Shown here: positions 949 to 63,998 of the stretch, in pieces | How positions within the stretch are numbered: the first letter of the stretch is position 1 | How the letters are laid out: each line of letters starts with the position of its first letter | Virus record (IMG/VR): IMGVR_UViG_3300047548_001271 | Location: 64,001 to 128,000 of that record | Strand: one strand, 5' to 3' | From: a virus | DNA length: 64,000 nt | Translations under genes and position numbers: made by a program | Notes under the pieces: generated by a model | Database searches by the model: none | What the model saw: the letters and a program-made list of their open reading frames with translations, nothing else | What the model was told of the DNA's origin: nothing

Positions 949-1430
949 TAATTTTCTACTTTAATTTTTTTAGACATTGCGTATTTAACTGTGTAAAATG
1001 TTCCACTTTCTTGTTCTAATGGATTAAGCAAAGCAAAAACCATATCACAGTTATCAACCATAGCTCTATCTCTTTCAGTGAAAGCGGATGGTTTATATTG
1101 ATCATGAAGAACTACAACTTTTTCAGCTTTACCTATTATTTGATTATACTTTTCTTTAGTTGATGTTGGCCAAGCTGATTCTTGACCTTTAAATGGTATA
1201 TAACAATGAATTGGTATTTCAAGTTCAATAGCGACTTCAGCTAGCCAAGTGTCAAATCCAATTGCCATACCTGTGATAATATGACTTATTTGCCCGCTGT
1301 TATAGCCAACATCTAAGTCACAATATAGTCTATTTTTTAGATTTTTCAACCATGGATGGTTATCATTATATTTACAAGGACAATATTTTGGTCTATGCCC
1401 AGTTCCTGCAATTCTATTCATAATCTCCAA
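936..1430 (-). CDS. YspA/DUF1273-like SLOG family protein
   Basis: N-terminal GTGHRP, TGMAIGFD, 'RDRAMVDNCD' and GT..TV.YA motifs. Confidence 0.8.
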   Translation of the reverse strand: MEIMNRIAGTGHRPKYCPCKYNDNHPWLKNLKNRLYCDLDVGYNSGQISHIITGMAIGFDTWLAEVAIELEIPIHCYIPFKGQESAWPTSTKEKYNQIIGKAEKVVVLHDQYKPSAFTERDRAMVDNCDMVFALLNPLEQESGTFYTVKYAMSKKIKVENYWRD

Positions 1431-2262
1431 TTCCTTCGCAAGTCATTTGTATTTTACTTAAAAGAGAAACGCCAAGAATATCAAATTTTGTGCATCCAAT
1501 AGCTTCAAGATCACCCATTTCCATTCCAGCAATTTTAGCATTTCCTCTAGCTTCTTTGATCATTGGGCAGACCTCATTTAGCAAATCTAATGAAATAACT
1601 ACACCAGCGGCGTGTTTACCTTGAGATTTGTATGTTCCTTCCAACCGTATAGCTTGTTCAAAATCTCTCGCATATTCACCTTTCAAAGATCCATCTTCGT
1701 CTATCCAACAATAATCAGACAACTCTTTAGGTGTGTTCTCAAGGGACCACATTAATATTGACGGCCTTTCCATATCTTTCAACTCATCGGAAATTTCAGC
1801 CTCGTCTGGTATATATTTTGTGATTTGGTTCATTTGTTCCGGAGAACATCTATCATTGACTCTTAGAACTTCTTTTAGGATCGATTTGCCTTGAAGCCGA
1901 CCAAACGTAATCATTTGACAAACTCTGTCCGAGCTATACTTATCTCGAAGATATTGAATAACATCTTCTCTAATTTCTGGTGGAAAGTCAACGTCAATGT
2001 CTGGTAAGGAGTAGTTTCCTTTTATAAACTTAACAGGTTTTGTCTTATCTAAATCATCGCATTTTCCACAAACCCATAACACATAACTATTTTTTGAATT
2101 TGATTTTACTTCGACATTTTCTATTATGTGCTTATAGTAGGCAAATCCATTTTTCATTTCTGATATGATATTACATTCTTCAATAAAGAACGGATTGTTC
2201 TCTACTTCTTCAAGTCTATTATCAATAGGTCTTAATCCGTTTTTACTCAATACTGAATTCAT
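1414..2262 (-). CDS. dnaE: DNA polymerase III alpha (DnaE-type), second fragment (catalytic palm)
   Basis: LPDIDVDF catalytic motif, GKHAAGVVIS, KFDILG. Confidence 0.92.
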   Translation of the reverse strand: MNSVLSKNGLRPIDNRLEEVENNPFFIEECNIISEMKNGFAYYKHIIENVEVKSNSKNSYVLWVCGKCDDLDKTKPVKFIKGNYSLPDIDVDFPPEIREDVIQYLRDKYSSDRVCQMITFGRLQGKSILKEVLRVNDRCSPEQMNQITKYIPDEAEISDELKDMERPSILMWSLENTPKELSDYCWIDEDGSLKGEYARDFEQAIRLEGTYKSQGKHAAGVVISLDLLNEVCPMIKEARGNAKIAGMEMGDLEAIGCTKFDILGVSLLSKIQMTCEGIGDYE

Positions 2263-2825
2263 CTATACTCTTTCTAATACTCTTTCTAGTTTCTATAATA
2301 ATATTATAAAATCCGTTTATCAACCAAGATTCTATATACACACCATTGAATTTAGTAAAGAGTGGCAAATCCCATGTTGTTTTCAATAAACCTTCTGATA
2401 TTTGACCCTCTAATTTATTAACTATATTTTTAATCATATTCTTTCTCAAAATCATATTTTTTACTAATAATCATTACAAGCATTCTTTATTATTTCATAA
2501 ATATTACCAAATCTGTGCCTTGATAAAACCGCAAAATATGATCCATGTAAAATACATCGTTTGAGCTGATTATTTCAGCTTCTGAGATTTTATATTTTAA
2601 TTTATAAATTATATTTTTTAATATCATTTGTTACAACTTTAATTAAAGTCTTTTGTGATTTGTTTAGCAATAAATGCTTTGGCATAAATCCCAATAAAGT
2701 TATTGATTCTATATTCATTACGGTTTTTAAGAGAAAATCGATAATAGTTTTCTAAATCGCTATTATTGATTTTGTATTTACCAAAAAAATAATATTCAAT
2801 TATACATTTAGTATAATAATTTAAA

Positions 2826-4055
2826 TCAATTAATTTTTTCATTGTATTCGTACTCATCAAAACTAATCTTATCTCTTGAAAATCTACCACCATTAAAAAA
2901 TCGCTCAAAAAGTAAGCCGTATTCAATTGGATCAACTAGCGTAATCCCTAGTAGATAACAAACTAATGATCCGGCACCGCTGCCTCTTCCAGGTCCAATT
3001 AAATAACCTTTTGATCTAAAGTGGTTAACATAATCTTGTACAATTAAAAAGTAACCAGAAAGACCAGTGTTTGATATAACTCCAAGCTCATATAATACTC
3101 TATTTTTATATTCCTCTTGTTTTTCTGCTGGAATTTTATCTTTGATTAATTTTCTCCATCCAGAACGACAAAGCTCTTTTAGATATTCCTCTTGAGACAT
3201 TCCACTTGGGCAACTAAAGGAAGGAAGTTTTGGGTTTGACAAAATATTGAATTGTGTTATTTTACTAATTAAGTCTGAGAAATTATCTTCGTTAATTGAT
3301 CTAATATAGTAAGAACTATTTCGTATGAACATTAGCAAGTTTGTATTGTTGCTATTCTCTTTTTCTATTTTGTCTTGCAGTCTTTCAAGCGTTGTTTTTA
3401 GCTTAGAGCATAGAATAACTCTATGGTCTATCGAGTCACACCTTTTATTGTAAAAACTAGAAGAAAATGGTATTTTTTTTACATTAGTATTTATTAAGGC
3501 TTCTCTAAGAACTTTTATCGCTAAAAGCGTTGTTGAATCTTGATCATCAATTTCTATGTAATAGTCTTCGCCAAATATATTTTGCATTTCTTGTATTACA
3601 CTGCTAGGATCGGCGATATTGTAGGATTCAACATCTGCAAAGTCAATGGACTCTCCTAAGCAGTGACGAGCTAAGCGACTCCCTAAATAACCATCAACAC
3701 AAACGAAGTTTTGAGGATTTATTAGTGTAATAAGTTCTTCAAATGATATTTTTGCCCCTTTGTCATAATTATCCTCGTCATTACATCTTGATATAACAAC
3801 AAGTAAATTCTTCCAAGCATTAATATTTTTACAGAACAAACAGATAGACGACCCATCCTTTAACACTATCTCTGAGCCAATTATTGGTATTATTTCATTC
3901 TCTTTACAAGCTTTAAGGAATGATATGACGCCGCTGATTGAACCAATATCACAAATACCAGCATGTTTATATCCAAGCTCTTTACATCTCTTTACTATGT
4001 CTTTTGGCTTCTGAGTTGACAATAGTAATGAATAATGAGAATGATTTCTTAGCAT
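2826..4055 (-). CDS. dnaE: DNA polymerase III alpha (DnaE-type), first fragment (PHP domain and start of palm)
   Basis: HSHYSLL PHP start, GYFLIVQDY, GPGRGSGAGSLVCYLLGIT.VDP, LLFERF. Confidence 0.93.
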   Translation of the reverse strand: MLRNHSHYSLLLSTQKPKDIVKRCKELGYKHAGICDIGSISGVISFLKACKENEIIPIIGSEIVLKDGSSICLFCKNINAWKNLLVVISRCNDEDNYDKGAKISFEELITLINPQNFVCVDGYLGSRLARHCLGESIDFADVESYNIADPSSVIQEMQNIFGEDYYIEIDDQDSTTLLAIKVLREALINTNVKKIPFSSSFYNKRCDSIDHRVILCSKLKTTLERLQDKIEKENSNNTNLLMFIRNSSYYIRSINEDNFSDLISKITQFNILSNPKLPSFSCPSGMSQEEYLKELCRSGWRKLIKDKIPAEKQEEYKNRVLYELGVISNTGLSGYFLIVQDYVNHFRSKGYLIGPGRGSGAGSLVCYLLGITLVDPIEYGLLFERFFNGGRFSRDKISFDEYEYNEKIN

Positions 4056-4056
4056 T

Positions 4057-5058
4057 TTAATCCTTCGCTATTCTTCCGCCGCCGTCTTGATATTTTGTAA
4101 TTTTCTTTAAGTCTGCGTATTTTTCTGTGACTTTTTTAATTCCATCTCTTTTTATTTCTTTGTGCATCGCTTGGCATATAGTATCTCCATTTTCTGTCAA
4201 TTCTGAAAAATTGCATAGCTTTGTACATTTGAAATCGGTGTTATTTGCAGAAACTTGCTTAGGTATTTGAACATTTTTTATGTATTCAAATTTTTGTCGA
4301 AGCATTGATTCAGCTTTTATATAATCAGATTCATCAAATGGCAAGTCAAAAACACCACCATCGTTAACATAAAAGATACTAGTATAAAATGAATACTCTG
4401 GATAAAGATTTTTGATCGCATAATAGTATAAAAGTAATTGAGGGTCTTTTTGAAAATCTTCATATTCTTTAATCTTTCCAGTTGCCCAGTCTTTTCTTTT
4501 CCCACTTTTGTAGTCTAATATCTGAAAGTATTTTTCATCCTCTTGTATGATTAGGTCAACTGTGCCTTTGATAGATAAATAACCAGATATTTTTTGTCCA
4601 TTAACTTCATAATCATACTTAGCCCAATCTTGTTTTATTTCTATATCAAAAAATTTTTCAGTAGCAAATACGTTTTGATTTCTTGGGTCGTACATTCCAT
4701 TTTTGTATAATATTGTCTTATATACCCAAGAAATACAAGTCTGCAAATCAGCTTCTGTTAAACCTAAATCTGGCTCTAGCTTGGAATAGTGTTCGAAAGC
4801 TAGCGTCGTAATATACTCGATATCATCGCACTGGGCAAATGTCAAATCCTCTAAATCGTCATTTTTTAGCTTTCTTTTTTTAGTTTTTTGTGCTAATTTT
4901 TTATCGGCTAGGATTTGTAAGGCTCGATGCATGATTGTTCCCATTGTCGCCTTTTTGTTTTGCTTGCCTTTAAAACCCAAAACATATGTGAAAAAATATT
5001 GCATTTCACACATACTAAGCGTGCCAATAGAACTAGATCTTAAATAACATATCATCAT
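4057..5058 (-). CDS. PD-(D/E)XK nuclease (RecB/Cas4-like exonuclease)
   Basis: GT.MH, KGTVDL, ILDYKSG, QLLLY motifs; Cys residues at both ends. Confidence 0.8.
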   Translation of the reverse strand: MMICYLRSSSIGTLSMCEMQYFFTYVLGFKGKQNKKATMGTIMHRALQILADKKLAQKTKKRKLKNDDLEDLTFAQCDDIEYITTLAFEHYSKLEPDLGLTEADLQTCISWVYKTILYKNGMYDPRNQNVFATEKFFDIEIKQDWAKYDYEVNGQKISGYLSIKGTVDLIIQEDEKYFQILDYKSGKRKDWATGKIKEYEDFQKDPQLLLYYYAIKNLYPEYSFYTSIFYVNDGGVFDLPFDESDYIKAESMLRQKFEYIKNVQIPKQVSANNTDFKCTKLCNFSELTENGDTICQAMHKEIKRDGIKKVTEKYADLKKITKYQDGGGRIAKD

Positions 5059-5064
5059 AGTATT

Positions 5065-5934
5065 TTACTTTATTGTTGTTGTGTATCTACCAGTATTTAT
5101 TTTTTGAGTTACTCCGAGCTTGATCATTAATTTCAAAAACTCAGAACATGATTCTTCTATAGATATATTTTGATTGTCAAGTATAAAGTCAAAGCCCTCA
5201 TATCCATCAAGCTCAACCTCGCTGATATGCGAGTCTTCTTTTACTGATCTTGTTAATCGTACAACTTTGCCGCCAGCAGCTTGAATGGCTTTGACTTCAT
5301 TTTCGAATCTACAATCACTAATTACTGCAATTGCCGACCCATCACTATTTATGCGATTTAAACAGTTGTTAATCCATATTGGCCCATATATTTTTCTCAT
5401 GATATTAGTGCCAAAGAACTGCATAAATTCACGAGCTGTCATTGGTCCAGGATCATGAAACGTCATTTTTGAAATCACATCTCTTACATTAGATCCATAG
5501 TGATTTTTCATAACAGCGTTATAAAATTCTGCATCAGTGATAACACCCGGCATATTTTCCCATAGCAAATGTTCTTGAATCTGATTCTTTTGTTCATCAG
5601 TTCCATAAACACATTCTAGTGGAATATTGAATAGGGAAACGCATAATTCTTTTAAAGAATCGGCAAAGCTATAACCTTTTATTAAAGGCCAGATTCTTCT
5701 ACTAGCAAAATCGTAAAAATTATCATTATTTTGATTTAAATCAAGAACACCCATTTGTTCAACTACATCGCCATTATCATCTGACACTGTGCAATTTACA
5801 ATCAAATCTCCAGTAGGAGAAATTTCAAATCTATCAATTATATCATGCCTTTTCATTTCATGGCCGTGTATAAAGTTTGATAATGTTGTTTTGCCACTTT
5901 GTTTGCGGCCAGATAAAGCAATAATTGTTGTCAT
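5065..5934 (-). CDS. deoxynucleoside monophosphate kinase
   Basis: GRKQSGKTT P-loop, SFADSLK, REFMQFFGT, ISDCRFENE, HISE. Confidence 0.85.
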   Translation of the reverse strand: MTTIIALSGRKQSGKTTLSNFIHGHEMKRHDIIDRFEISPTGDLIVNCTVSDDNGDVVEQMGVLDLNQNNDNFYDFASRRIWPLIKGYSFADSLKELCVSLFNIPLECVYGTDEQKNQIQEHLLWENMPGVITDAEFYNAVMKNHYGSNVRDVISKMTFHDPGPMTAREFMQFFGTNIMRKIYGPIWINNCLNRINSDGSAIAVISDCRFENEVKAIQAAGGKVVRLTRSVKEDSHISEVELDGYEGFDFILDNQNISIEESCSEFLKLMIKLGVTQKINTGRYTTTIK

Positions 5935-6977
5935 ATCATTCCTATTAATTTTGGTTTTATAAATTTGTTAACTTCTTCAACTGTCATTTCTCCAACATCT
6001 TTTTTTTGGAGTTCAATATCAATAATATTAAAAAATGAGGACAGTCTTTCTCTTATTTCTTGTCTACATTTTTTCCCAGCTTCATCATTATCCATAATTA
6101 CAATTAGATTTAACGCGCCAGTTCTCTGGAGCATAAATTCTTGAGAATCACTTAAATGACAGCCAAAAATACCGACACAGTTTTTAATGCCAGATTCCCA
6201 TAATCTTAGCACATCACCCTGTCCTTCGACAATGATAATCGAGCCACTTTTTTCAATAAAAGGTAAAGATTTTCCATAATTATAAAGGTGGTTTGATTTA
6301 TTAAATCCTTTTTTGTTAATCCATTTTGATTCTGAATTTGTTACTGTTCGGCCAACACAACCTACTAGATACTTGTCATCATCATCATAAATAGGAAAAA
6401 CAACCCTATTGTAAAAACTAGAACTTGGATCTAAGCATAGACCAATATCAAATTCATCCAATGTTTCTGGTTTAAATCCTCTATTTATATAGAATTGTGA
6501 AGGTATTTTAAGTCTCTTCCTGACATCTGCTTTTGTGAATTTTGTTTTTTCAGGTCTTTTCTGTTTACTCAGCAAATCTAAATAAGAATCTTTTTCATAT
6601 TTGAATGCCTTAGCCTTAACACCTTTCGTGAAACTTTCAAGAAATTTTATTGTTTCAACAAATGTGTGTTTCTTATTTAGTTTTTTATCAAGAAGTAAAT
6701 TAACTAGTGATACTATGTCATGACCTTTGTGTTTGTGACATTGTTTTGTGTTACAAAACCATAAACCATAATGACGACTATCCTCTTCGATATTAATATT
6801 CCATGCTGAAGGATTGTCACCGTTGTGAACTGGGCACGAACCAACTAAAATTTCATCTTGCTCAAAAAAATCATTATAACCAAAGTAATCTAAAAGATCA
6901 AAAATTCTCTTCATCGCCTTCATCTTCAGATTCAGAAGTGCTTGCGTTCGAGAATCCTTTTGATCTTGTTTTTTCAT
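5931..6977 (-). CDS. dnaG: DNA primase (DnaG-type, zinc finger plus TOPRIM)
   Basis: CPVHNGDNPS zinc finger, R.VFPI, VEGQGD, DND.AG. Confidence 0.9.
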   Translation of the reverse strand: MKKQDQKDSRTQALLNLKMKAMKRIFDLLDYFGYNDFFEQDEILVGSCPVHNGDNPSAWNINIEEDSRHYGLWFCNTKQCHKHKGHDIVSLVNLLLDKKLNKKHTFVETIKFLESFTKGVKAKAFKYEKDSYLDLLSKQKRPEKTKFTKADVRKRLKIPSQFYINRGFKPETLDEFDIGLCLDPSSSFYNRVVFPIYDDDDKYLVGCVGRTVTNSESKWINKKGFNKSNHLYNYGKSLPFIEKSGSIIIVEGQGDVLRLWESGIKNCVGIFGCHLSDSQEFMLQRTGALNLIVIMDNDEAGKKCRQEIRERLSSFFNIIDIELQKKDVGEMTVEEVNKFIKPKLIGMI

Positions 6978-8376
6978 TTTTCTTTATCTCTCTAATCAAA
7001 CCTATTTCTCTGATATTTGCTGTAGAGCCATCCATTTGCAAGCAGATGTAACCACCGTCATCAATTCCTGGCCCATGCCTAGCAACAAGCGGAATTAGCT
7101 TACGATTGCCATTTTGCAAGCCATCTTGAGCCCTCTCCTCGTCTGTCTTCGCCTTAAAGATGGAGAATGAGGTACAAAGCCAAATCAGACGGTCAGAGCC
7201 AGATACGGCGTCTGTAGATTCTTTAGTGATACCATCTCTATTAAGCTGGACAAATGATAAGCAAGCACAATCATTCTCAACACAAAAATTATGCAAGCTA
7301 GTTATTTGAAATCCTAACACTTGAAATTCTGCAAGGTTATTACTTATACTCTCAGAAGTCATTAACTTCAAATAATCATAAATAATTAGACAGTCTTTTA
7401 GTTTTCCATTCTCATCATATCCAACATGTTTCATTAGCCATCGCCTAGCAATTGACAATGTCTCTTCAAAAGGTTTTCCAGCAATGCTAATATAATGATA
7501 TGGTATTTTCTTTAGAACTTTTGCGGCGGCAACAACTTTATCTCTGTCCTCAAAGTTTTTTGCAAAACCACCATTCGCAATAGTATTGATTTCAACACCA
7601 CTTAAATTTGCGAGTAATCTATTCCAATGATCTTCAGTGCTCATTTCTGTGTCGAGCATTAACACTGGAATGTTTAATTTGCTAGAAATATGCAATGCAA
7701 TATTATCAGCAATGCAGCTTTTCCCAACTTTTGGTCGAGCGGATATTAGATCAACACACTTTCTTCTAAAACCTCCACCAATAGCAACATCATAAGATGG
7801 ATATCCACTAGGAATTCCTAATGATTTTCCTTTATTATTTTCTACGTGCTCAAGATATTCATCAATCGACTCGCCAATTTTCTTTGGTGCCGATTCATCC
7901 TCTTTAATATATGACAGACAAATATCTTCGATTGGTTTTTCAACTAAAGAAAGAATCTTGTTTATTGTCTCTTCACCGGAAGTCGCGTCTAATGCTCGAT
8001 AAATATCTCTTAACTTATTTTGAATTGTTCGAGAGAATTGCAGTCTTCGTATCTTTTGAGCGTGTTTTCTAACATTCTCTATTTTTATACTTGCTGATAA
8101 AATACCATTTAAATGCTTTAGATTTTCTTTTTCATTGATAAACTCGCCGAGAGATAAGGTTTGTGCTGATGATAATATTGTTGAAAAATCTATCTTTGCG
8201 TTGGTTTTAATTGCATGTTTTATACACGCAAATATTACACGATTCACTTCTAATGTGAATGTGCTCTCCTCAACCAAACCATCAACATCTAGCCATGCAT
8301 CTTCTCCAAACTGACAAACACCAGCAAGAACAGCTCTTTCAGAGGCAATGTTTTGCAAATTAGACTTTGATGTCAT
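6898..8376 (-). CDS. dnaB: replicative DNA helicase DnaB
   Basis: ARPKVGKS Walker A, DTEMS, IYDYLKL, QLNR; start placed at MTSK (8376) to avoid overlap with the upstream ORF. Confidence 0.9.
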   Translation of the reverse strand: MTSKSNLQNIASERAVLAGVCQFGEDAWLDVDGLVEESTFTLEVNRVIFACIKHAIKTNAKIDFSTILSSAQTLSLGEFINEKENLKHLNGILSASIKIENVRKHAQKIRRLQFSRTIQNKLRDIYRALDATSGEETINKILSLVEKPIEDICLSYIKEDESAPKKIGESIDEYLEHVENNKGKSLGIPSGYPSYDVAIGGGFRRKCVDLISARPKVGKSCIADNIALHISSKLNIPVLMLDTEMSTEDHWNRLLANLSGVEINTIANGGFAKNFEDRDKVVAAAKVLKKIPYHYISIAGKPFEETLSIARRWLMKHVGYDENGKLKDCLIIYDYLKLMTSESISNNLAEFQVLGFQITSLHNFCVENDCACLSFVQLNRDGITKESTDAVSGSDRLIWLCTSFSIFKAKTDEERAQDGLQNGNRKLIPLVARHGPGIDDGGYICLQMDGSTANIREIGLIREIKKNEKTRSKGFSNASTSESEDEGDEENF

Positions 8377-50791: not shown

Positions 50792-51760
50792 AAACTTTTC
50801 CTTTTTAAATAATTTGAATGAATGTACAGTCTTTGCATCCCCAAGAAGTATTATCATCCCATGTATTATTGCTTCCGCATTTTGGACACTTCATTTATAA
50901 GATCCTTTTTATATTAGTCAACTTTAATCCCACTTTTTTCAAGAACTTTCTTAGCTCTTTCAATTTGTTTTTTCTCTGCTAAGGCTTTTCTTTTTTGTTG
51001 AGCCTCTTCTTGTTTTTTAATTTCTTCTTTTTCTTTTTCTTGTTCATCTTGAATGAATTTCTTAATATTCTCAATAAAACCATCAATCGTTTTTTTGCTT
51101 GTAATGTCTTCTAAAATAACTATTTCAGTATTATACTTTGATAAACGTTTTTTACCTTGTGGGCTTTGTAACCATTTAAGTTCCTCTTCCGTTACATCTT
51201 CCCATTCAGATTGTTCATTTGTCTCAAAAAGTTTAGCATTTTGACAAAATGTATAATTACAAGTATCACAGTGTATAATATTGTTATGAACTCTAATCAA
51301 TTTAATTCTTGGCATGGCACACCTCATTTGACATCGTTAAAGCCCAGATCATTAATCCGCGTTTATGGTTGCCGCCACTAACACGAATATAATGACTTGA
51401 TATTTCATTATGTGGATATTCATCTGCATCGCAGAATATTTTTTTACTTGGAACCCACATCATTCCTGAGTCAGTAATATTCAAGAATATACCACTAGTA
51501 TGCTTGTATACTAGCGTGTCTTTATCTTGAGTCCATCCAATACCTGGTTTTAGTTTATTTTTCTTCATTCAATTCACCAGTCATCCATTTTCTCAAATCA
51601 ACAATTAAAAACCAATCTTGGTTAATTTTTTTAGCAATTTCTAAAGCTTGTTCTTCTGTTTCAAAGCATCCTCTCCAATCTTCTGTTCCTGCGGAGTAAC
51701 ACTCGTTATCTGCAGCGATTAGCAGAAATGGTTTATTCATTATAAATTTGCTTTCTCAAG

Positions 51761-52018
51761 TGGACCTGGCCGGATTCGAACCGGCGTCTCAAACTAACTA
51801 TATAACAATTCATTCACACGTTTAGTTGCTGAGCAACGTCCTTAGTTTATACGATAACAATCCACTCTTGGTTGATAGGGTTTGTGGAGACCCCACGCTT
51901 ATGCAGCGAGAGAAACGATGTTTGCTCTTATTTTTTGATTGGCTTTTTACGAGGCCAGCCGATCAACCTCGACGTGCATCATTATACCGCTTCATCTGAT
52001 CGATACCATTACAGGCCC
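51761..52018 (-). ncRNA. ssrA: tmRNA (258 nt, tag ANIVSLAA)
   Basis: GGGCCTG/CAGGTCC-A acceptor with G3.U, T-arm GCCGGTTCGAATCCGGC, PK1 (GAGG..GGCT GGCCTC..AGCC), resume codon GCA, ORF GCA AAC ATC GTT TCT CTC GCT GCA TAA at 51925-51899. Confidence 0.92.
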
Positions 52019-52020
52019 AA

Positions 52021-52107
52021 TGCGAGAAGGTGGGATTCGAACCCACATGTTTAGCCAGTGGCACTTGATTTACAGTCAAGCTCCTTCACCAATTTGGATA
52101 CTCTCGC
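52021..52107 (-). tRNA. tRNA-Tyr(GUA)
   Basis: CTTGA-CTGTAAA-TCAAG; long variable arm. Confidence 0.9.
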
Positions 52108-54051: not shown

Positions 54052-54160
54052 TCCGGCAGCTAGGATTCGAACCTAGATCACGATCTTAGAAGTGATAATT
54101 TTAATGCTGTTAGAGATAAAATATCTCGTTTTACGTGTTTTACCGTTAAACTACCGCCGA
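54052..54160 (-). ncRNA. tRNA-shaped RNA with UAACAGCA module in place of the anticodon loop (Y-RNA-like, copy C)
   Basis: Acceptor TCGGCGG/CTGCCGG, D-arm, T-arm CTAGGTTCGAATCCTAG; anticodon region AAAAC-GAGATA/TATCTC-TAACAGCA. Confidence 0.75.
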
Positions 54161-54161
54161 T

Positions 54162-54265
54162 ATGTGTTGCCGGGACTCGAACCCGGATGCTAAAATTTTA
54201 TGCTGTTAGAGATCTTTTCTGTATCTCGTTTTCATATTTTTGCTTTACCATTAAGCTACAACACA
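54162..54265 (-). ncRNA. tRNA-shaped RNA with UAACAGCA module in place of the anticodon loop (Y-RNA-like, copy D)
   Basis: Acceptor TGTGTTG/CAACACA, D-arm GCTT/AAGC, T-arm CCGGGTTCGAGTCCCGG; AAAAC-GAGAT/ATCTC-TAACAGCA. Confidence 0.75.
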
Positions 54266-59199: not shown

Positions 59200-59841
59200 T
59201 CATAAATTTATCCAAGAATTAGTTTTCCAAGAAGTGATTAACCATTCTACATAATCAGCATTGTTTACACCATACCATCCACAAGCAAATGGCGGATGAG
59301 ATTCTACTAAAAGTAGACGACCATCATCTGTTAAACCAAAATCAACAGCACCACAAAATTTATCTGGCCAATTTATATTTAGTTTTGGACCATCAGAATC
59401 TATATAAACTTCATCATCATCGCCGCCTAAATACCAGCCAGATGTTATTTGTTTTCCATTAGCAATGTAGTACCTCCACTCGTTTACGAAGTTCACAACT
59501 TCTGAGCACCAGTATACATCATCTTTTAGCACTGTCAAGTCAGAAACCACAAAAGGTTCAAATTTTTTGAAAGATGTAGCTGACTTAACAAATAATCCTG
59601 GTTTTATTTCATTTTTTGTTCTTAATGTTATATCTCTTCCTAAGAAGTCTTTGAGAAAAGATGGATAAAAATTAATTATTTCTCGTGGTTTTGGTAGAAC
59701 CTGTAGGCAGTAGTCAACAGAACCGACAGCTATTGTATTTGGCTTCGGCTCCTTGCGAAACTCGGCGAGAAAACCATTTTTCAATGATTGAGAATACACC
59801 GCATTAGCTTCTCTACTACCTACAGGCTCTATTGAAAACAT
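59200..59841 (-). CDS. ATP-grasp (R2K/DUF4343-like) protein
   Basis: VGSV.Y, YP..L..FLGR, FVK, SEVV.F..EWRYYI, VDFG, LVE....ACGWYG. Confidence 0.75.
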   Translation of the reverse strand: MFSIEPVGSREANAVYSQSLKNGFLAEFRKEPKPNTIAVGSVDYCLQVLPKPREIINFYPSFLKDFLGRDITLRTKNEIKPGLFVKSATSFKKFEPFVVSDLTVLKDDVYWCSEVVNFVNEWRYYIANGKQITSGWYLGGDDDEVYIDSDGPKLNINWPDKFCGAVDFGLTDDGRLLLVESHPPFACGWYGVNNADYVEWLITSWKTNSWINL

Positions 59842-59852
59842 ATAAATCCTTA

Positions 59853-60764
59853 TTAATGATTGAGTTTGCTACGAACTTCTTGTAATGAATACTCCTTCAG
59901 AATATTAGAATCTCTAAAGATTTCAACAAGTTCGCCTTGAGACTCTTGTTCTGGAGTGCAGTTGTTCACTAGAGATAGTTTACCATCATTCCTTACTACT
60001 GACAATAGTCCTTTTGCAGATTTTTTAGTTCCGTTATCAGTTTTTGGGTCTTTCCAGATTGGTTTTGCTTCGCCATTGATCTGCACCCAAGTCGCCTTAC
60101 ACGCAATACTGAATGTATCACGAGTATTGTACTGGTAAGTATAGCTTCCAACGCCGAATACAACATTAGTTGATGCAAAACCTTTAGCTTCCAATCGCTC
60201 GCAAATTCTCTTACAACGATCAAGAGTTATACTGTCTCCGTAAATCAGACCAATATGAGAATCTAGTTCAATATAACCCTTAGAATTCTGTGTACCACCA
60301 AAAACATCATAAAGTCTTTCTACAGCACCTTCAACTTCTGATTGTGAGACGATTTTACCTTCTGGTGTTACATAGTCACCGTCTATTGTGAGCAAGCACT
60401 CAACACCATCAAATGCCTTCATAACATACGATGCACTATCCAACTTCTTTAAGAGCTTTTTAGTTGTCAACCCACAACTATCAAATGTGTAACCAGTCAA
60501 GATTTTAACTGGGTCTCCGCTGTCAGGTCGGATAACAACCTTCCCATTTCGATTCATGATTTGATCTTTAATCGAAGGAAGAAGATTGTCAATTACAGAC
60601 CAAAAATCCCATGTATCACTTACAATTGATACAATTCCTTCTGGATAAACATCTTGAATTAAACGTAGAAACATGCCTCTTTCATTATAAGACAGAATTT
60701 GTGATTGATATTTTTCAATATCTTGTTTAGTTACTGATCTAGTTCTTGTGATTGGTGTATTCAT
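59853..60764 (-). CDS. NAMPT-like/Namat, C-terminal half
   Basis: IVSIVSDTWD, VIRPDSGDP, IYGDSIT, FGVGS, TRDT, KDPKTD.GTKKSAKG; start placed at MNTP (60764). Confidence 0.9.
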   Translation of the reverse strand: MNTPITRTRSVTKQDIEKYQSQILSYNERGMFLRLIQDVYPEGIVSIVSDTWDFWSVIDNLLPSIKDQIMNRNGKVVIRPDSGDPVKILTGYTFDSCGLTTKKLLKKLDSASYVMKAFDGVECLLTIDGDYVTPEGKIVSQSEVEGAVERLYDVFGGTQNSKGYIELDSHIGLIYGDSITLDRCKRICERLEAKGFASTNVVFGVGSYTYQYNTRDTFSIACKATWVQINGEAKPIWKDPKTDNGTKKSAKGLLSVVRNDGKLSLVNNCTPEQESQGELVEIFRDSNILKEYSLQEVRSKLNH

Positions 60765-60798
60765 ATATAACAGCACTTTCGGAACAATGGAGAATAAA

Positions 60799-61392
60799 AT
60801 GAAGAAATGTGGACATTGCAAAGAATTAAAACCATTAGAATCGTTTTGTAAAAATAAACGATGTAAAGATGGATATCATTATACTTGCAAACAATGCGTT
60901 AATAAATCGTGCTCAACAGAAGAGTACAAAACAAAACGTAAATTGTATTATCATACTTGTGAAAAATATAAACTTAGAAAAATATCACAATCTACTAAAG
61001 TTAGAAAAGTGGAGTATGATAAAATTTATAGAAAAAAGAACGCGGATAAGATAAAAATACAAAAACGTGATTGGGAAAAATTGCATAAAAATGATCCTAT
61101 ATTTAAAATTAAAAGAAACCTAAGAAGAAGAATCAACCATTTAGTTAGGGGTCAAAAATCAGATAAAACTTTTAACTTAATAGGTTGCAACGCCGAAGAA
61201 TTCAAAAAACATATAGAATCTCAGTTTTTAGAAGGAATGTCTTGGGATAACTATGGAGAATGGCACATTGATCATATAGTTGAATGCTTTAGATTTGATT
61301 TAACAGATTTTGAAAATCAAAAAAAATGTTTTCATTATACCAATCAAAGGCCACTATGGAAGAAAGATAATCTTACTAGAAAACGAATTTAG
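60799..61392 (+). CDS. free-standing HNH endonuclease inserted antisense in the NAMPT-like gene
   Basis: N-terminal C..C...C..C zinc finger; LIGC...F..HIE.QF..GMSWDNYG.WHIDH...C...HYTN.RPLW..DN; GGAGA Shine-Dalgarno before ATG 60799. Confidence 0.88.
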   Translation: MKKCGHCKELKPLESFCKNKRCKDGYHYTCKQCVNKSCSTEEYKTKRKLYYHTCEKYKLRKISQSTKVRKVEYDKIYRKKNADKIKIQKRDWEKLHKNDPIFKIKRNLRRRINHLVRGQKSDKTFNLIGCNAEEFKKHIESQFLEGMSWDNYGEWHIDHIVECFRFDLTDFENQKKCFHYTNQRPLWKKDNLTRKRI

Positions 61393-62203
61393 AAAACTCC
61401 CATTCATTAGTTTTTTCATTATAAACTTCTACTATTTCTTTTGGGTTATGCAAAGATCCATGGGCACAACAGACTGCGTGTTCTGTGGCTGGGACGCTCG
61501 CCCCAACAAGCTCATTCTCAACATCAGCTTTATAATATTCTTCAAGAAATTCAATTGCTGTGATAGTGTCAGTCCCAGAAAATGAGAGCAAATGACCAGC
61601 ACCAGAGACAGAACCACTTTCTACAGAAGACATGCCCCTCATTGAGAAATCATGACCTTGCCAATCCACAAACGCCGGATTATCAGAAGTCTTATTCGCG
61701 TAGGAGTCAAGAACCTTTCTGTACTCATGAGCAATAGTTGCAGATGTAATTGCCTGCCAAATTACAGTTTGAGTTAGTGTTTCAACAAAATTTGTCAACC
61801 AGTAAAACTCTGGTTTTGTGTTGACAATTGTCATGAATGGAACACCTACTGGGCAGAGAGTTCCTTCTGGCAAAGCCTTGATTGACAACGGCAAATACTG
61901 GAGATCGTGCAGTGCGGCAATCCTTTCAGCATTCACTGATCCTTTACCAAGAGTATTGTCCATCATCCGCAAAAACTTGTTTACAACAACTTCTTTTGGT
62001 TGACTGAAAAACTCTTTGTCAAATCTATCTACGAGGTATTCTTTCACTAGATATTGAAGACCGAAAACAACAACCTCGTTAACGCCGCTCAACCTCGAAG
62101 ATCGTGGCGTGGTATTTGAGTATACAAACTCAGTTCCTGGTGGATATTGATCTGGGTGGGATTGCTTGTAAAAGTCAGAGATAAACAATGGGAAGTTTTT
62201 CAT
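61376..62203 (-). CDS. NAMPT-like/Namat, N-terminal half
   Basis: DFYK.SH..QYP, FGLQY, HDFSMRG, GHLLSF.GTDT, SVPATEH. Confidence 0.9.
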   Translation of the reverse strand: MKNFPLFISDFYKQSHPDQYPPGTEFVYSNTTPRSSRLSGVNEVVVFGLQYLVKEYLVDRFDKEFFSQPKEVVVNKFLRMMDNTLGKGSVNAERIAALHDLQYLPLSIKALPEGTLCPVGVPFMTIVNTKPEFYWLTNFVETLTQTVIWQAITSATIAHEYRKVLDSYANKTSDNPAFVDWQGHDFSMRGMSSVESGSVSGAGHLLSFSGTDTITAIEFLEEYYKADVENELVGASVPATEHAVCCAHGSLHNPKEIVEVYNEKTNEWEFSKFVF

Positions 62204-63078
62204 TTTGAAATCCTTGAAAGAAAACAGAATTGTTTGGTACGCAAATTGTTCCAGCAGTAGATTGAATTATACCCGGAGTCTAAGACTATGTCAACACCTT
62301 TCGAGAAAATTCCATGGGAAACATAGAGATGAAGAGATTTAAAATTATCAAGTTTTTTAGCCACTTCGATGAATGTACGTCCACCATCGCAAATGTCATC
62401 AACTACAAGAATGTTTTTCCCTTTAGTTGAAACTTCATCAACCGGCTCTATCCCTAGAATATTACCAGTAGATTGATCTCTAACTTTTGAGAAGTGCAAG
62501 CTTTCAACTTGTTTAGCGAACTGCTCGTTTCTTATTTTTAAAAGAGTTTTGTATCTATCCATTGCTCCTTTATCTGGATAAATAACAATATCAATCTTTT
62601 CTTGTTCAATGATATGGTTAATTGTTCCTAGCGGTAGTTCATCTTTAAGTGTTACTCTTGATGTATCAATAAGACCCGAAAGAGCTTTAAAGTTATGCAC
62701 ATCAAAAGTTTTTAAAGAGGAAATTTTATTATTTAAAACATCGCACAATGTTTTTAAAGCAAAGCAACTATCATTTGAAACGCTCTTATCTTGTCTAGCA
62801 TATGGAAAATAGGGAACAGATAAATGTATCTCTGATTTTTCAATTGATTGAATAAGATCTATTAGCTGAAAAAGTTGAAAAACTTCAGCTTCAGATTCAA
62901 ACAACCAATCAACATTAACTTTTGAAGCCTCAATTGTTTGATAAGTATTATAAAACCCTCCGTTTAATATTACTTTTCTTTGCGTTGACTTGAGGATATC
63001 ATCGCTCAAATGCCAAATTTGAGATGTTCCATCTGGAAAAACTGTTGGAGTTACTACATAACCATTAACTAAAAACAT
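62200..63078 (-). CDS. ribose-phosphate pyrophosphokinase-like (Adps candidate)
   Basis: FPDG, PYFPYARQD, DVH, PDKGA, VVDDICDGGRTF, HGIFSKG. Confidence 0.88.
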   Translation of the reverse strand: MFLVNGYVVTPTVFPDGTSQIWHLSDDILKSTQRKVILNGGFYNTYQTIEASKVNVDWLFESEAEVFQLFQLIDLIQSIEKSEIHLSVPYFPYARQDKSVSNDSCFALKTLCDVLNNKISSLKTFDVHNFKALSGLIDTSRVTLKDELPLGTINHIIEQEKIDIVIYPDKGAMDRYKTLLKIRNEQFAKQVESLHFSKVRDQSTGNILGIEPVDEVSTKGKNILVVDDICDGGRTFIEVAKKLDNFKSLHLYVSHGIFSKGVDIVLDSGYNSIYCWNNLRTKQFCFLSRISK

Positions 63079-63336
63079 TTATTTTTTCCTTAAAAAATTC
63101 TTTATCGATGAAAACATTAATCCAAAAAACCAAACAAACGAGGAAAACACTAACACAAAAAACACAACAAATAAGTAAGCTATTAATAAAAATAAGAGCA
63201 AGGCGAAATCAAAATACAGAGGCAAAAATACAATCCAATAAGAAATATCTGTAAACCCAAATATTTTAGCAGTAAACATAATCAAAAAACATGCTATTGG
63301 TATTGAATACGGCATTGATTCTGACTTATTTTTCAT
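63079..63336 (-). CDS. small membrane protein
   Basis: K..G...ISYW.VFLPL and strong hydrophobicity. Confidence 0.6.
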   Translation of the reverse strand: MKNKSESMPYSIPIACFLIMFTAKIFGFTDISYWIVFLPLYFDFALLLFLLIAYLFVVFFVLVFSSFVWFFGLMFSSIKNFLRKK

Positions 63337-63998
63337 AATATTTTTCCATCAAGATCGTTTTTAGGTTGGCCATTTTTTGACCGAAGATTTCCATTAGCAT
63401 CAACCCAAAGATATCTATCCTTTAATCTTAATCTTCCTCCTCGCCAGTTGCCAGAGAGAAGTATATCATCGTTTGGCCCTAATGCAAGTGTATTTTGTGA
63501 ATTTCTCGAAAGCGTCACGTCATCGAAAGACAATACTTGACAACTTAGATCATTAATATGAGATCTTTGCATCCAATTATTATAGTTGTTTTTTGACGAC
63601 CTTTCGTATTCAGCCGCAGCTATCATATAATTGTCGCCGTTAGATCCTAGACTTGGTCCATCAATCCTTTTTTTACTGAATAATCTAGTGTTAAGTATAC
63701 TAGTATTAATACATGATTCACCCAAAAATATATCACATTTATTCGACTCAAAATATCCACTATTTAACATAGTCGCGGTGCATTGTTTAATTTCAAAACC
63801 ATTTAATTCGTTTTTTTCAGCTCCACATGAAATAAAATTACATGCGACTGAGCCGTTAACATAAAATCCAGTCTGATTAAAATTAGCAATACACTGCTCA
63901 AAGGTGTTATTATTTATACGTGGTGGCTCTTTGTCAATATCAACTGTTATGAAAAAAAATCCATATTTTGAGAATGAGCACTTAACATTTTTAAATAT
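63333..63998 (-). CDS. parallel beta-helix (tailspike-like) protein, 5' end outside window
   Basis: Frame stays open to the window end (…IFKNVKCSFSKYGF…NNNTFEQCIANFNQTGFYV…CNFISCGAEKN…); C-terminal LWVDANGNLR.K.G.P..D.DG. Confidence 0.7.
   Translation of the reverse strand: MFKNVKCSFSKYGFFFITVDIDKEPPRINNNTFEQCIANFNQTGFYVNGSVACNFISCGAEKNELNGFEIKQCTATMLNSGYFESNKCDIFLGESCINTSILNTRLFSKKRIDGPSLGSNGDNYMIAAAEYERSSKNNYNNWMQRSHINDLSCQVLSFDDVTLSRNSQNTLALGPNDDILLSGNWRGGRLRLKDRYLWVDANGNLRSKNGQPKNDLDGKIL

Follow-up and report, generated by a model that had tools for sequence, protein, structure and literature searches.

How can a phage enzyme be made when its gene has been cut in two and another gene, read in the opposite direction, lies between the pieces? 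This question is raised by a locus at positions 59853–63078 of the window, by which we mean the whole stretch of DNA analysed here (64,000 nucleotides (nt), positions 64,001–128,000 of IMGVR_UViG_3300047548_001271, an uncultured aquatic phage). The locus carries a gene resembling phosphoribosyl pyrophosphate synthetase (Prs-like, PRPS fold; called Adps-like below) and, directly after it, a gene resembling nicotinamide phosphoribosyltransferase (NAMPT) and Namat, which is present as an N-half and a C-half on either side of an antisense endonuclease open reading frame (ORF). In phages Bas63, SPbetaL1, and FADO, Adps and Namat together constitute NARP1 (Osterman et al., bioRxiv 10.1101/2024.02.11.579819). 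We think it likely that the locus is a NARP1-type operon for reconstituting nicotinamide adenine dinucleotide (NAD+), that its Namat gene has been fragmented by a mobile homing-endonuclease cassette, and that the two halves reassemble as a two-chain enzyme.

The features of the locus are given below, with protein lengths in amino acids (aa). In the ORF listing, every relevant gene except the endonuclease ORF is on the minus strand.

62200-63078, minus strand: Adps-like gene (PRPS-fold, Prs-like), 292 aa, the first of the NARP1-type pair.
61376-62203, minus strand: ORF of the NAMPT/Namat-like N-half, 275 aa; its ATG shares 4 nt with the stop of the Prs-like gene.
61454-62203, minus strand: N-half core, residues 1-250, equivalent to SPbetaL1 Namat 4-253, with the catalytic His242 in PATEH and the selectivity-clamp residue Arg37 (SCL).
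61376-61453, minus strand: N-half tail, residues 251-275, LHNPKEIVEVYNEKTNEWEFSKFVF, with the stop codon; part of the cassette, acidic, predicted to form a beta-hairpin.
60748-61392, plus strand: endonuclease ORF, antisense to Namat; the likely gene is 60799-61392 (197 aa, 594 nt).
60765-60798: divergent spacer from the endonuclease ATG to the C-half ATG, 34 nt, with both ribosome-binding regions inside it.
60764 (ATG) to 59853 (stop), minus strand: C-half ORF, 303 aa.
60687-60764, minus strand: C-half head, residues 1-26, MNTPITRTRSVTKQDIEKYQSQILSY; part of the cassette, with a basic start and then a short helix.
59853-60686, minus strand: C-half core, residues 27-303, equivalent to SPbetaL1 Namat 254-489, with Arg79, Asp81, Gly176/Asp177, and the selectivity-clamp SCH motif at 206-216.
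60687-61453: the whole inserted cassette (tail, stop, antisense endonuclease gene, spacer, start, head), 767 nt, AT-rich.

The ORF listing confirms that, as the initial annotation had it, the Prs-like gene runs into the start of the NAMPT-like gene; the overlap measures 4 nt. The N-half stops 33 aa past SVPATEH, and the C-half ORF opens with its 26-aa head, followed by NERGMFLRLIQDVYPEGIVSIVSD, restarting 26 aa before the next conserved block; the coordinates and peptides first reported for this break proved exact. Between the halves, the endonuclease gene probably starts at ATG 60799, with a GGAGA Shine-Dalgarno sequence 5 nt ahead, and its 3' end is overlapped by the final 17 nt of the N-half ORF (the last five tail codons). 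Among the loci compared, a GAAAG motif lies 12–16 nt upstream of the C-half ATG, and the spacer between the endonuclease and C-half start codons measures 22–34 nt in four of six. The G+C (GC) content of the cassette in the window is 27.5%, compared with 42.1% for the N core and 37.7% for the C core.

Are the two halves parts of one Namat? On phrog_448 (500 positions) the N-half covers 14–263 and the C-half 254–494, and on NCBIfam NF006629 (465 positions) they cover 4–251 and 240–462; Pfam also places both halves in the family. The best solved relatives of both are 9W5X and 9W5W, the nicotinamide and NAD+ complexes of SPbetaL1 Namat (PMC12774641). Matches to SPbetaL1 Namat reach 3.7e-94 for the N-half and 5.4e-75 for the C-half, compared with only ~1e-42 and ~1e-19 for human NAMPT. 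Residues 7–250 of the N-half align with 9W5X 10–253, and the C-half aligns from its residue 27 with 9W5X from 254 onward. The Namat gene is thus cut cleanly between SPbetaL1 residues 253 and 254, with nothing missing. The cut falls in a loop, eight residues beyond the catalytic His in PATEH. An intact close relative of 528 aa (P0122) runs continuously across this point. Relative to intact Namat, the extra residues number 25 on the N-half (251–275) and 26 on the C-half (1–26).

The ligand-binding residues are divided between the halves, nine on the N-half and twelve on the C-half. Those kept on the N-half side are, in 9W5X numbering, Asp13, Tyr15, Arg40, Phe189, Ser190, Arg192, Asp215, Ala242, and His245; on the C-half side they are Arg306, Asp308, Gly360, Asp361, Gly390, Ser391, Phe392, Tyr396, Thr398, Arg399, and Asp400. 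Substitutions among the 21 NAD+/nicotinamide contacts comprise Phe392 to Tyr in the window and Ala362 to Ser in the window and eight split relatives. The split relatives otherwise keep their ligand residues; the exceptions are Ser190, which is Ala in L088, and the last three residues, which the truncated C-half of L043 does not reach.

The defining feature of Namat, according to Lan et al., is a selectivity clamp formed by the SCH motif, GSX-phi-X-phi-X-phi-TRD, and an SCL stacking residue (PMC12774641). The aromatic X residues of SCH stack on adenine, and the SCL loop (beta1–beta2) supplies an Arg, Lys, or Tyr as the stacking residue, which is Arg40 in SPbetaL1 (PMC12774641). Residues 206–216 of the C-half, GSYTYQYNTRD, carry the SCH signature, and Arg37 of the N-half aligns with the SCL Arg40. 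The clamp would therefore be built from both chains. This signature, and the far closer match of both halves to SPbetaL1 Namat, support the initial assignment of the NAMPT-like gene to the NARP1 type, and on these sequence grounds the assignment appears well supported for Namat. With these residues shared out in this way, the active site is predicted to be composite and neither half should be active alone. The gene does not encode a single chain of ~490 aa; it consists of two ORFs of 275 and 303 aa with the antisense gene between them. In AlphaFold2 (AF2) models of the single chains, the mean predicted local distance difference test score (pLDDT) is 88.9 (N-half) and 84.8 (C-half).

A further feature of the C-half is an insertion of ~53 aa at residues 92–144 (60333–60491, minus strand), where SPbetaL1 Namat has ~10 residues. 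The AF2 model shows it as a compact element (pLDDT 95–98). It is common to intact homologues of 528–531 aa (P0122) and to L001, L002, L004, and L088, and is absent in L086, L087, and L089.

For the partner gene, an assignment to NARP1 as Adps is reasonable from its sequence. The protein matches phrog_619 (3.6e-54) and Pfam Pribosyltran, falls under all NCBIfam PRPS cut-offs (for example, 89 bits versus 113), and is 28% identical over 216 aa to the verified SPbetaL1 Adps (E 2e-15). Motifs that align to the SPbetaL1 enzyme include PY.R.D, H, PD.GA, the K in SKVRD, and the DD in VVDDI. A structure of Adps, that of the ICP1 enzyme, has been published (PMC13586617). Within the 3' end of the Adps-like gene, at 62266–62294 (minus strand) and ~60 nt upstream of the N-half start, we also observed a perfect sigma-70 consensus, TTGACA-17-TATAAT.

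What lies between the halves? The initial annotation saw the gap as filled by a plus-strand HNH ORF. The ORF is there, and the HNH label holds only through PHROG families and an H-x-D-H...N...N motif: the protein matches endonuclease VII phrog_1035 (1.7e-16) and HNH phrog_2255 (9e-5), and it has two CxxC pairs followed by WHIDH...NQRPLW...N. No HNH or other nuclease model in Pfam or NCBIfam matched the protein, even at E<=10, and when the endonuclease alignment was used as a profile against the PDB, only chance matches came back. From sequence, the family assignment outside PHROGs is weak. At least six further, divergent phage loci show the order N-half, antisense ORF of ~200 aa, C-half. These are L001, L002/L003, L043, L086, L087, and L088, which were identified by contig look-ups and a scan of viral contigs. 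Identity to the window in these loci is 51–68% for the N-half, 47–62% for the C-half, and 50–61% for the endonuclease orthologues at the same position, among which WH-x-DH...NQRPLW...N is invariant.

A pair of alleles from related phages shows how such an arrangement could arise. Outside two patches, the split L043 and the intact L056 differ by four mismatches in 4,069 compared bases, and L043 has 1080 nt in place of 27 nt in L056. The inserted block consists of the tail with its stop, the antisense endonuclease gene, and the start codon with the head, which indicates that the tails arrive together with the endonuclease gene. The L043 cassette has a GC content of 23%, versus 29–32% in its flanks. 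Mismatches are concentrated around the insertion: the adjoining 158 nt upstream contain 39 and the adjoining 112 nt downstream 32, and many of them are three bases apart, at third codon positions. We read this pattern as the classic signature of homing, in which flanking exon sequence has been co-converted from a diverged donor. About 1 kb upstream, in the Adps-like gene (positions 3251–3750), a further patch holds 36 mismatches, which suggests another recombination tract in the operon.

The distribution of the tail among Namat alleles points the same way. When N-half cores were trimmed of the tail and placed in a tree, 16 alleles bearing this tail fell at scattered positions among intact ones; forcing these 16 into a single clade cost 570 log-likelihood units and was rejected by the approximately unbiased test (p-AU 9e-63). 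Mobility is seen in these relatives, from the L043/L056 pair and the polyphyly of split alleles, and not in the window itself.

Together, these results suggest the following sequence of events. In co-infection, the endonuclease would presumably cut an intact Namat gene at the highly conserved PATEH-coding region, and repair would copy the whole cassette, tails included, into the recipient. The cassette would give the upstream fragment a tail and a stop codon, and the downstream fragment a ribosome-binding region, a start codon, and a head. The operon transcript would then yield N-half and C-half as separate translation products: the 4-nt overlap would couple the N-half to Adps, and the C-half would start at its own weak GAAAG-type site. 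The fragments are expected to co-fold into a two-chain Namat protomer, and the protomers to dimerise head-to-tail. Mapping onto 9W5W/9W5X shows that each active site needs residues of the N-half, the C-half, and the partner protomer. Because the cut passes through domain B and the final strands of domain A also come from the C-half, the interface between the chains would be extensive. The operon of Adps-like and Namat-like genes would in this way continue to rebuild NAD+ after its destruction by bacterial immunity. That the two chains would function as an enzyme is very likely.

Tail and head are the parts that the cassette adds to the protein, and neither has a counterpart in intact Namat. 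Ahead of the stop, the N-tail follows the pattern Y-x-x-V-E-E-x-[FW]-[DN]-E-x-T-x-x-W-x-x-x-[RK]-[YF]-[FL], which we found in ~15 protein clusters, with V-E-x-x-[FWY]-[ND]-E-x-T-x-x-W as the conserved motif. Heads, read from the loci and from full-length matches, begin with M-x(0-4)-K-T-R-x-R and continue into a short helix; a protein search limited to C-half residues 1–45 gave no candidate with enough shared words. The initial annotation had described the tails as novel; this is true with respect to intact Namat, but they are not unique to one phage and instead belong to a conserved family. The net charge of the tail is -2 in the window and -1 to -8 in the family, and that of the first 14 head residues is +3 in the window and +1 to +4 in the cassette family. 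AF2 predicts a beta-hairpin for the window tail (residues 256–262 and 267–274, pLDDT ~76–88) and, for the C-half alone, a head that is disordered over residues 1–10 and helical over 13–22.

By analogy with the Aeh1 system discussed below, tail and head probably have a role in assembly. The oppositely charged peptides could act as assembly tags, the tail hairpin and the basic head strand pairing or otherwise promoting association, and the insertion would then be phenotypically neutral. We are about evenly divided on the stronger proposal that acidic hairpin tail, endonuclease gene, and basic head have co-evolved as one homing unit, which carries its own protein-level antidote in place of an intron or intein. 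If this is true, the cassette can enter Namat genes in many unrelated phages and stay there while their counter-defence is spared. The antisense orientation may also tie expression of the endonuclease to that of the counter-defence operon.

The alternative that survives best is that the two-chain enzyme works and its tails are neutral baggage, the native interface reassembling the halves and the tails being kept by their overlap with coding and control DNA of the endonuclease. Tail-coding DNA does overlap the endonuclease gene, by 17–45 nt in five of six loci, and the head sits where the endonuclease promoter must be. The native fold heavily interdigitates the two chains, and the Aeh1 heterodimer forms without its tails (PMC3045599). 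However, the tail motif is retained in L086, in which the tail does not overlap the endonuclease gene, and in the window the conserved tail core lies outside the overlap. The Arg codons of K-T-R-x-R differ among loci (AGA, CGA, CGT) while the peptide is kept, indicating that the head is under selection at the protein level. Moreover, tails are always acidic and heads always basic, and acidic tails also occur at same-site cuts made with different elements, in L004 and in L089, the latter with a basic head as well. Given these observations, we regard purely passive tails as unlikely.

A separate idea about the origin of the tail was prompted by tblastn alignments of the N-half that extended into intact genes, namely that the N-tail is a degenerate copy of the next downstream exon. 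Comparison with SPbetaL1 248–300 gave z values of -0.9 to 2.6, with 12–439 of 500 shuffles scoring as high, and we rejected this origin.

Several points count against a two-chain enzyme assembled through its tails. The 3' end of the endonuclease gene shares DNA with the last five tail codons, and its upstream signals must sit in the DNA that encodes the head, so part of the conservation of tail and head may reflect constraint on the endonuclease. The tail–head contact is deduced from charge, conservation, and the analogy with Aeh1, and the identity of Adps relies on 28% identity and gene adjacency. The L043 insertion is recent, so that allele alone is uninformative on function. As for expression, the C-half has only the weak Shine-Dalgarno-like GAAAG, a promoter and terminator scan of the region stayed at chance level (18 found versus 18.1 expected) with no promoter assignable, and the antisense endonuclease gene could hinder read-through transcription.

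Could the gene instead have been inactivated, the insertion having killed Namat so that the halves are decaying or selection acts on the endonuclease alone? Homing endonucleases are able to disrupt genes, NARP1 is dispensable on hosts that have no NAD+-depleting defences, and the L043 cassette was gained recently. We compared the relatives with this possibility in mind. A protein search with the N-half returned many intact homologues of ~480 aa and a set of N-half-only proteins of 268–290 aa, and PHROGs has families composed of halves (phrog_16547 and phrog_15800). Between split lineages dN is 0.28–0.56 and all three ORFs are open. Synonymous distance (NG86) is ~1.6–2.8 where it can be estimated and is saturated for most pairs, so the dN/dS comparison called for by the initial annotation yielded dN and, for most pairs, no computable dS. 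Open ORFs and retained ligand residues despite saturated dS point to long-term maintenance of both halves. In nine split loci the halves are open and the catalytic His is kept, together with nearly all of the 21 ligand residues, in line with the early impression that the halves are intact. Over so much divergence a pseudogene would not have lasted. Confident Namat-like folds are predicted for both halves by AF2, and the Adps partner is kept and translationally coupled. We therefore consider inactivation very unlikely.

The cut site has also been used by other elements. In L004/L005, a same-strand HNH_3 gene overlaps both halves (5001–7235), and in L089 (4001–5925) a degenerate LAGLIDADG remnant occupies a 356-nt gap at the cut site. 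A further relative, L064, has its Namat split at a second site, ~200 residues further on. Elements have thus inserted repeatedly in the loop after PATEH, a place where the gene tolerates being fragmented.

A cryptic self-splicing intron, from which the 767-nt insert would be spliced out with its antisense endonuclease gene to leave one normal Namat chain, is still less probable, and we regard it as extremely unlikely. Group I introns with homing-endonuclease genes are frequent in phage enzyme genes, and antisense endonuclease genes are known inside introns, as in eukaryotic ribosomal DNA introns. Yet an Rfam search of 59500–63500 at E<=10 returned neither group I nor group II introns for either strand, and at gathering score the window as a whole and eight related loci likewise gave no intron family. 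The Namat-sense RNA of the insert is no more stably folded than its shuffled versions (z = +1.23). All of the insert except the 34-nt spacer is taken up by the endonuclease ORF (594 nt) and the coding DNA for tail and head (153 nt), which bears out the initial view that there is no room for an intron core. Retention of tail and head as peptides, with synonymous codon changes and fixed stop and start positions, is likewise not what would be expected of an intron. A split intein would have tail and head ligate the fragments by trans-splicing, the arrangement that Dassa et al. 2009 (PMC2677866) described for fractured genes. It would suit both the layout of enzyme half, free-standing endonuclease gene, and enzyme half and the electrostatic attraction of known split-intein halves, but we regard it as extremely unlikely too, in line with the lack of intein motifs noted in the first reading of the locus: tail and head total 51 aa, far under a Hint domain of ~130 aa, a Pfam search found no Hint or intein domain, and no terminal His-Asn followed by Cys/Ser/Thr is present at the head/extein junction (...LSY|NER in the window, ...QQI|GEK in L043).

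Some observations concern the surroundings of the locus. Directly downstream of the C-half is a gene for an R2K-clade ATP-grasp protein (59200–59841, minus strand; Pfam R2K_2, 6.4e-21), which is not kept at that position in the related loci examined. Elsewhere in the window, a PolIII-alpha-type DNA polymerase is also in pieces (1414–4055, minus strand). Its first ORF, 2826–4055, corresponds to phrog_405 47–440 and ends in a short acidic tail, ...FDEYEYNEKIN, loosely like the Namat tail; the second, 1414–2262, corresponds to phrog_405 441–615 after an unmatched N-terminal extension of 84 aa. The gap between the polymerase pieces is ~560 nt and has no intron match. The regions 51758–52107 and 54052–54265 (minus strand) hold a phage transfer-messenger RNA (96.6 bits) adjoining a tRNA-Tyr, and two over-long tRNA-like matches of 104 and 109 nt that were missed by ARAGORN. 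Against known phages, matches reached at most 72% identity and were limited to Namat/NAMPT genes, and megablast of a 25-kb stretch of the window found no match.

How much of this was known before? Already published are NARP1 itself and, for one ribonucleotide reductase (RNR) gene, fragmentation by a homing endonuclease with essential, oppositely charged tails; in the literature searched we found no published split Namat or NAMPT. New here are the counter-defence enzyme as the target, the antisense endonuclease gene that overlaps the tail, the conservation of the tail family across many lineages, and an allele pair and phylogeny that show tail, endonuclease gene, and head moving together. Phage counter-defence genes such as NARP1 are thus targets of selfish elements, and annotation pipelines will miscall a split Namat as fragments or pseudogenes, affecting surveys of anti-defence systems. 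The natural pair of split and intact alleles makes it possible to test a third route to neutrality beside introns and inteins, as well as the recognition site of the endonuclease and the use of small natural oppositely charged tags for split-protein reassembly.

Compared with NARP1 of Bas63, SPbetaL1, and FADO, the window has the same direct succession of a Prs-like and a Nampt-like gene, and its Namat shares the SCH signature, the SCL arginine, and the catalytic core, with SPbetaL1 Namat as the best structural relative. It differs in that its putative Namat is encoded as two polypeptides with added tails and has the ~53-aa insertion in the C-half, and in that its Adps-like protein is only 28% identical to the SPbetaL1 enzyme.

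The fractured genes of Dassa et al. 2009 (PMC2677866) resemble the window in placing halves of a phage enzyme gene around an endonuclease gene, with imported control elements and a proposed electrostatic attraction between the added termini. In the window, however, there is no intein; 51 aa are added and splicing motifs are absent, so the product would stay as two chains. The T4 gp39/gp60 topoisomerase, split by mobA, offers another endonuclease-linked split with oppositely charged, tail-like extensions (PMC3045599). That case involves another enzyme, gene 60 uses translational bypassing, and no conserved mobile tail family has been described for it.

The closest precedent is the one named in the initial annotation, the nrdA-a/mobE/nrdA-b "genes in pieces" of phage Aeh1 (Friedrich et al. 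2007; Crona et al. 2010, PMC3045599), and it proved apt: in both systems, a free-standing homing-endonuclease gene cleanly splits an enzyme gene near the active site into two ORFs, which in the window are expected to be translated separately as in Aeh1, with no RNA or protein splicing. Both also have AT-rich, insertion-derived C- and N-terminal tails of opposite charge, and in both the enzyme is an obligate dimer with a composite active site, which for the window is predicted from the solved relatives. Deletion of the Aeh1 NrdA tails cut activity ~2000-fold and left heterodimers unable to dimerise (PMC3045599). The window differs in that the split gene is a counter-defence Namat in place of RNR, its endonuclease appears endonuclease VII/His-Me-like, and the endonuclease gene runs antisense, in convergent overlap with the tail. 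The charge polarity is reversed, with an acidic tail on the upstream fragment and a basic head on the downstream one. For the Aeh1 tails, a single case, no database matches existed (PMC3045599), whereas the Namat tails are a conserved family in many phage lineages that moves with the endonuclease gene as one cassette. Crona et al. 2010 proposed that element-borne tails may be a general way to neutralise gene fragmentation, perhaps overlooked elsewhere (PMC3045599).

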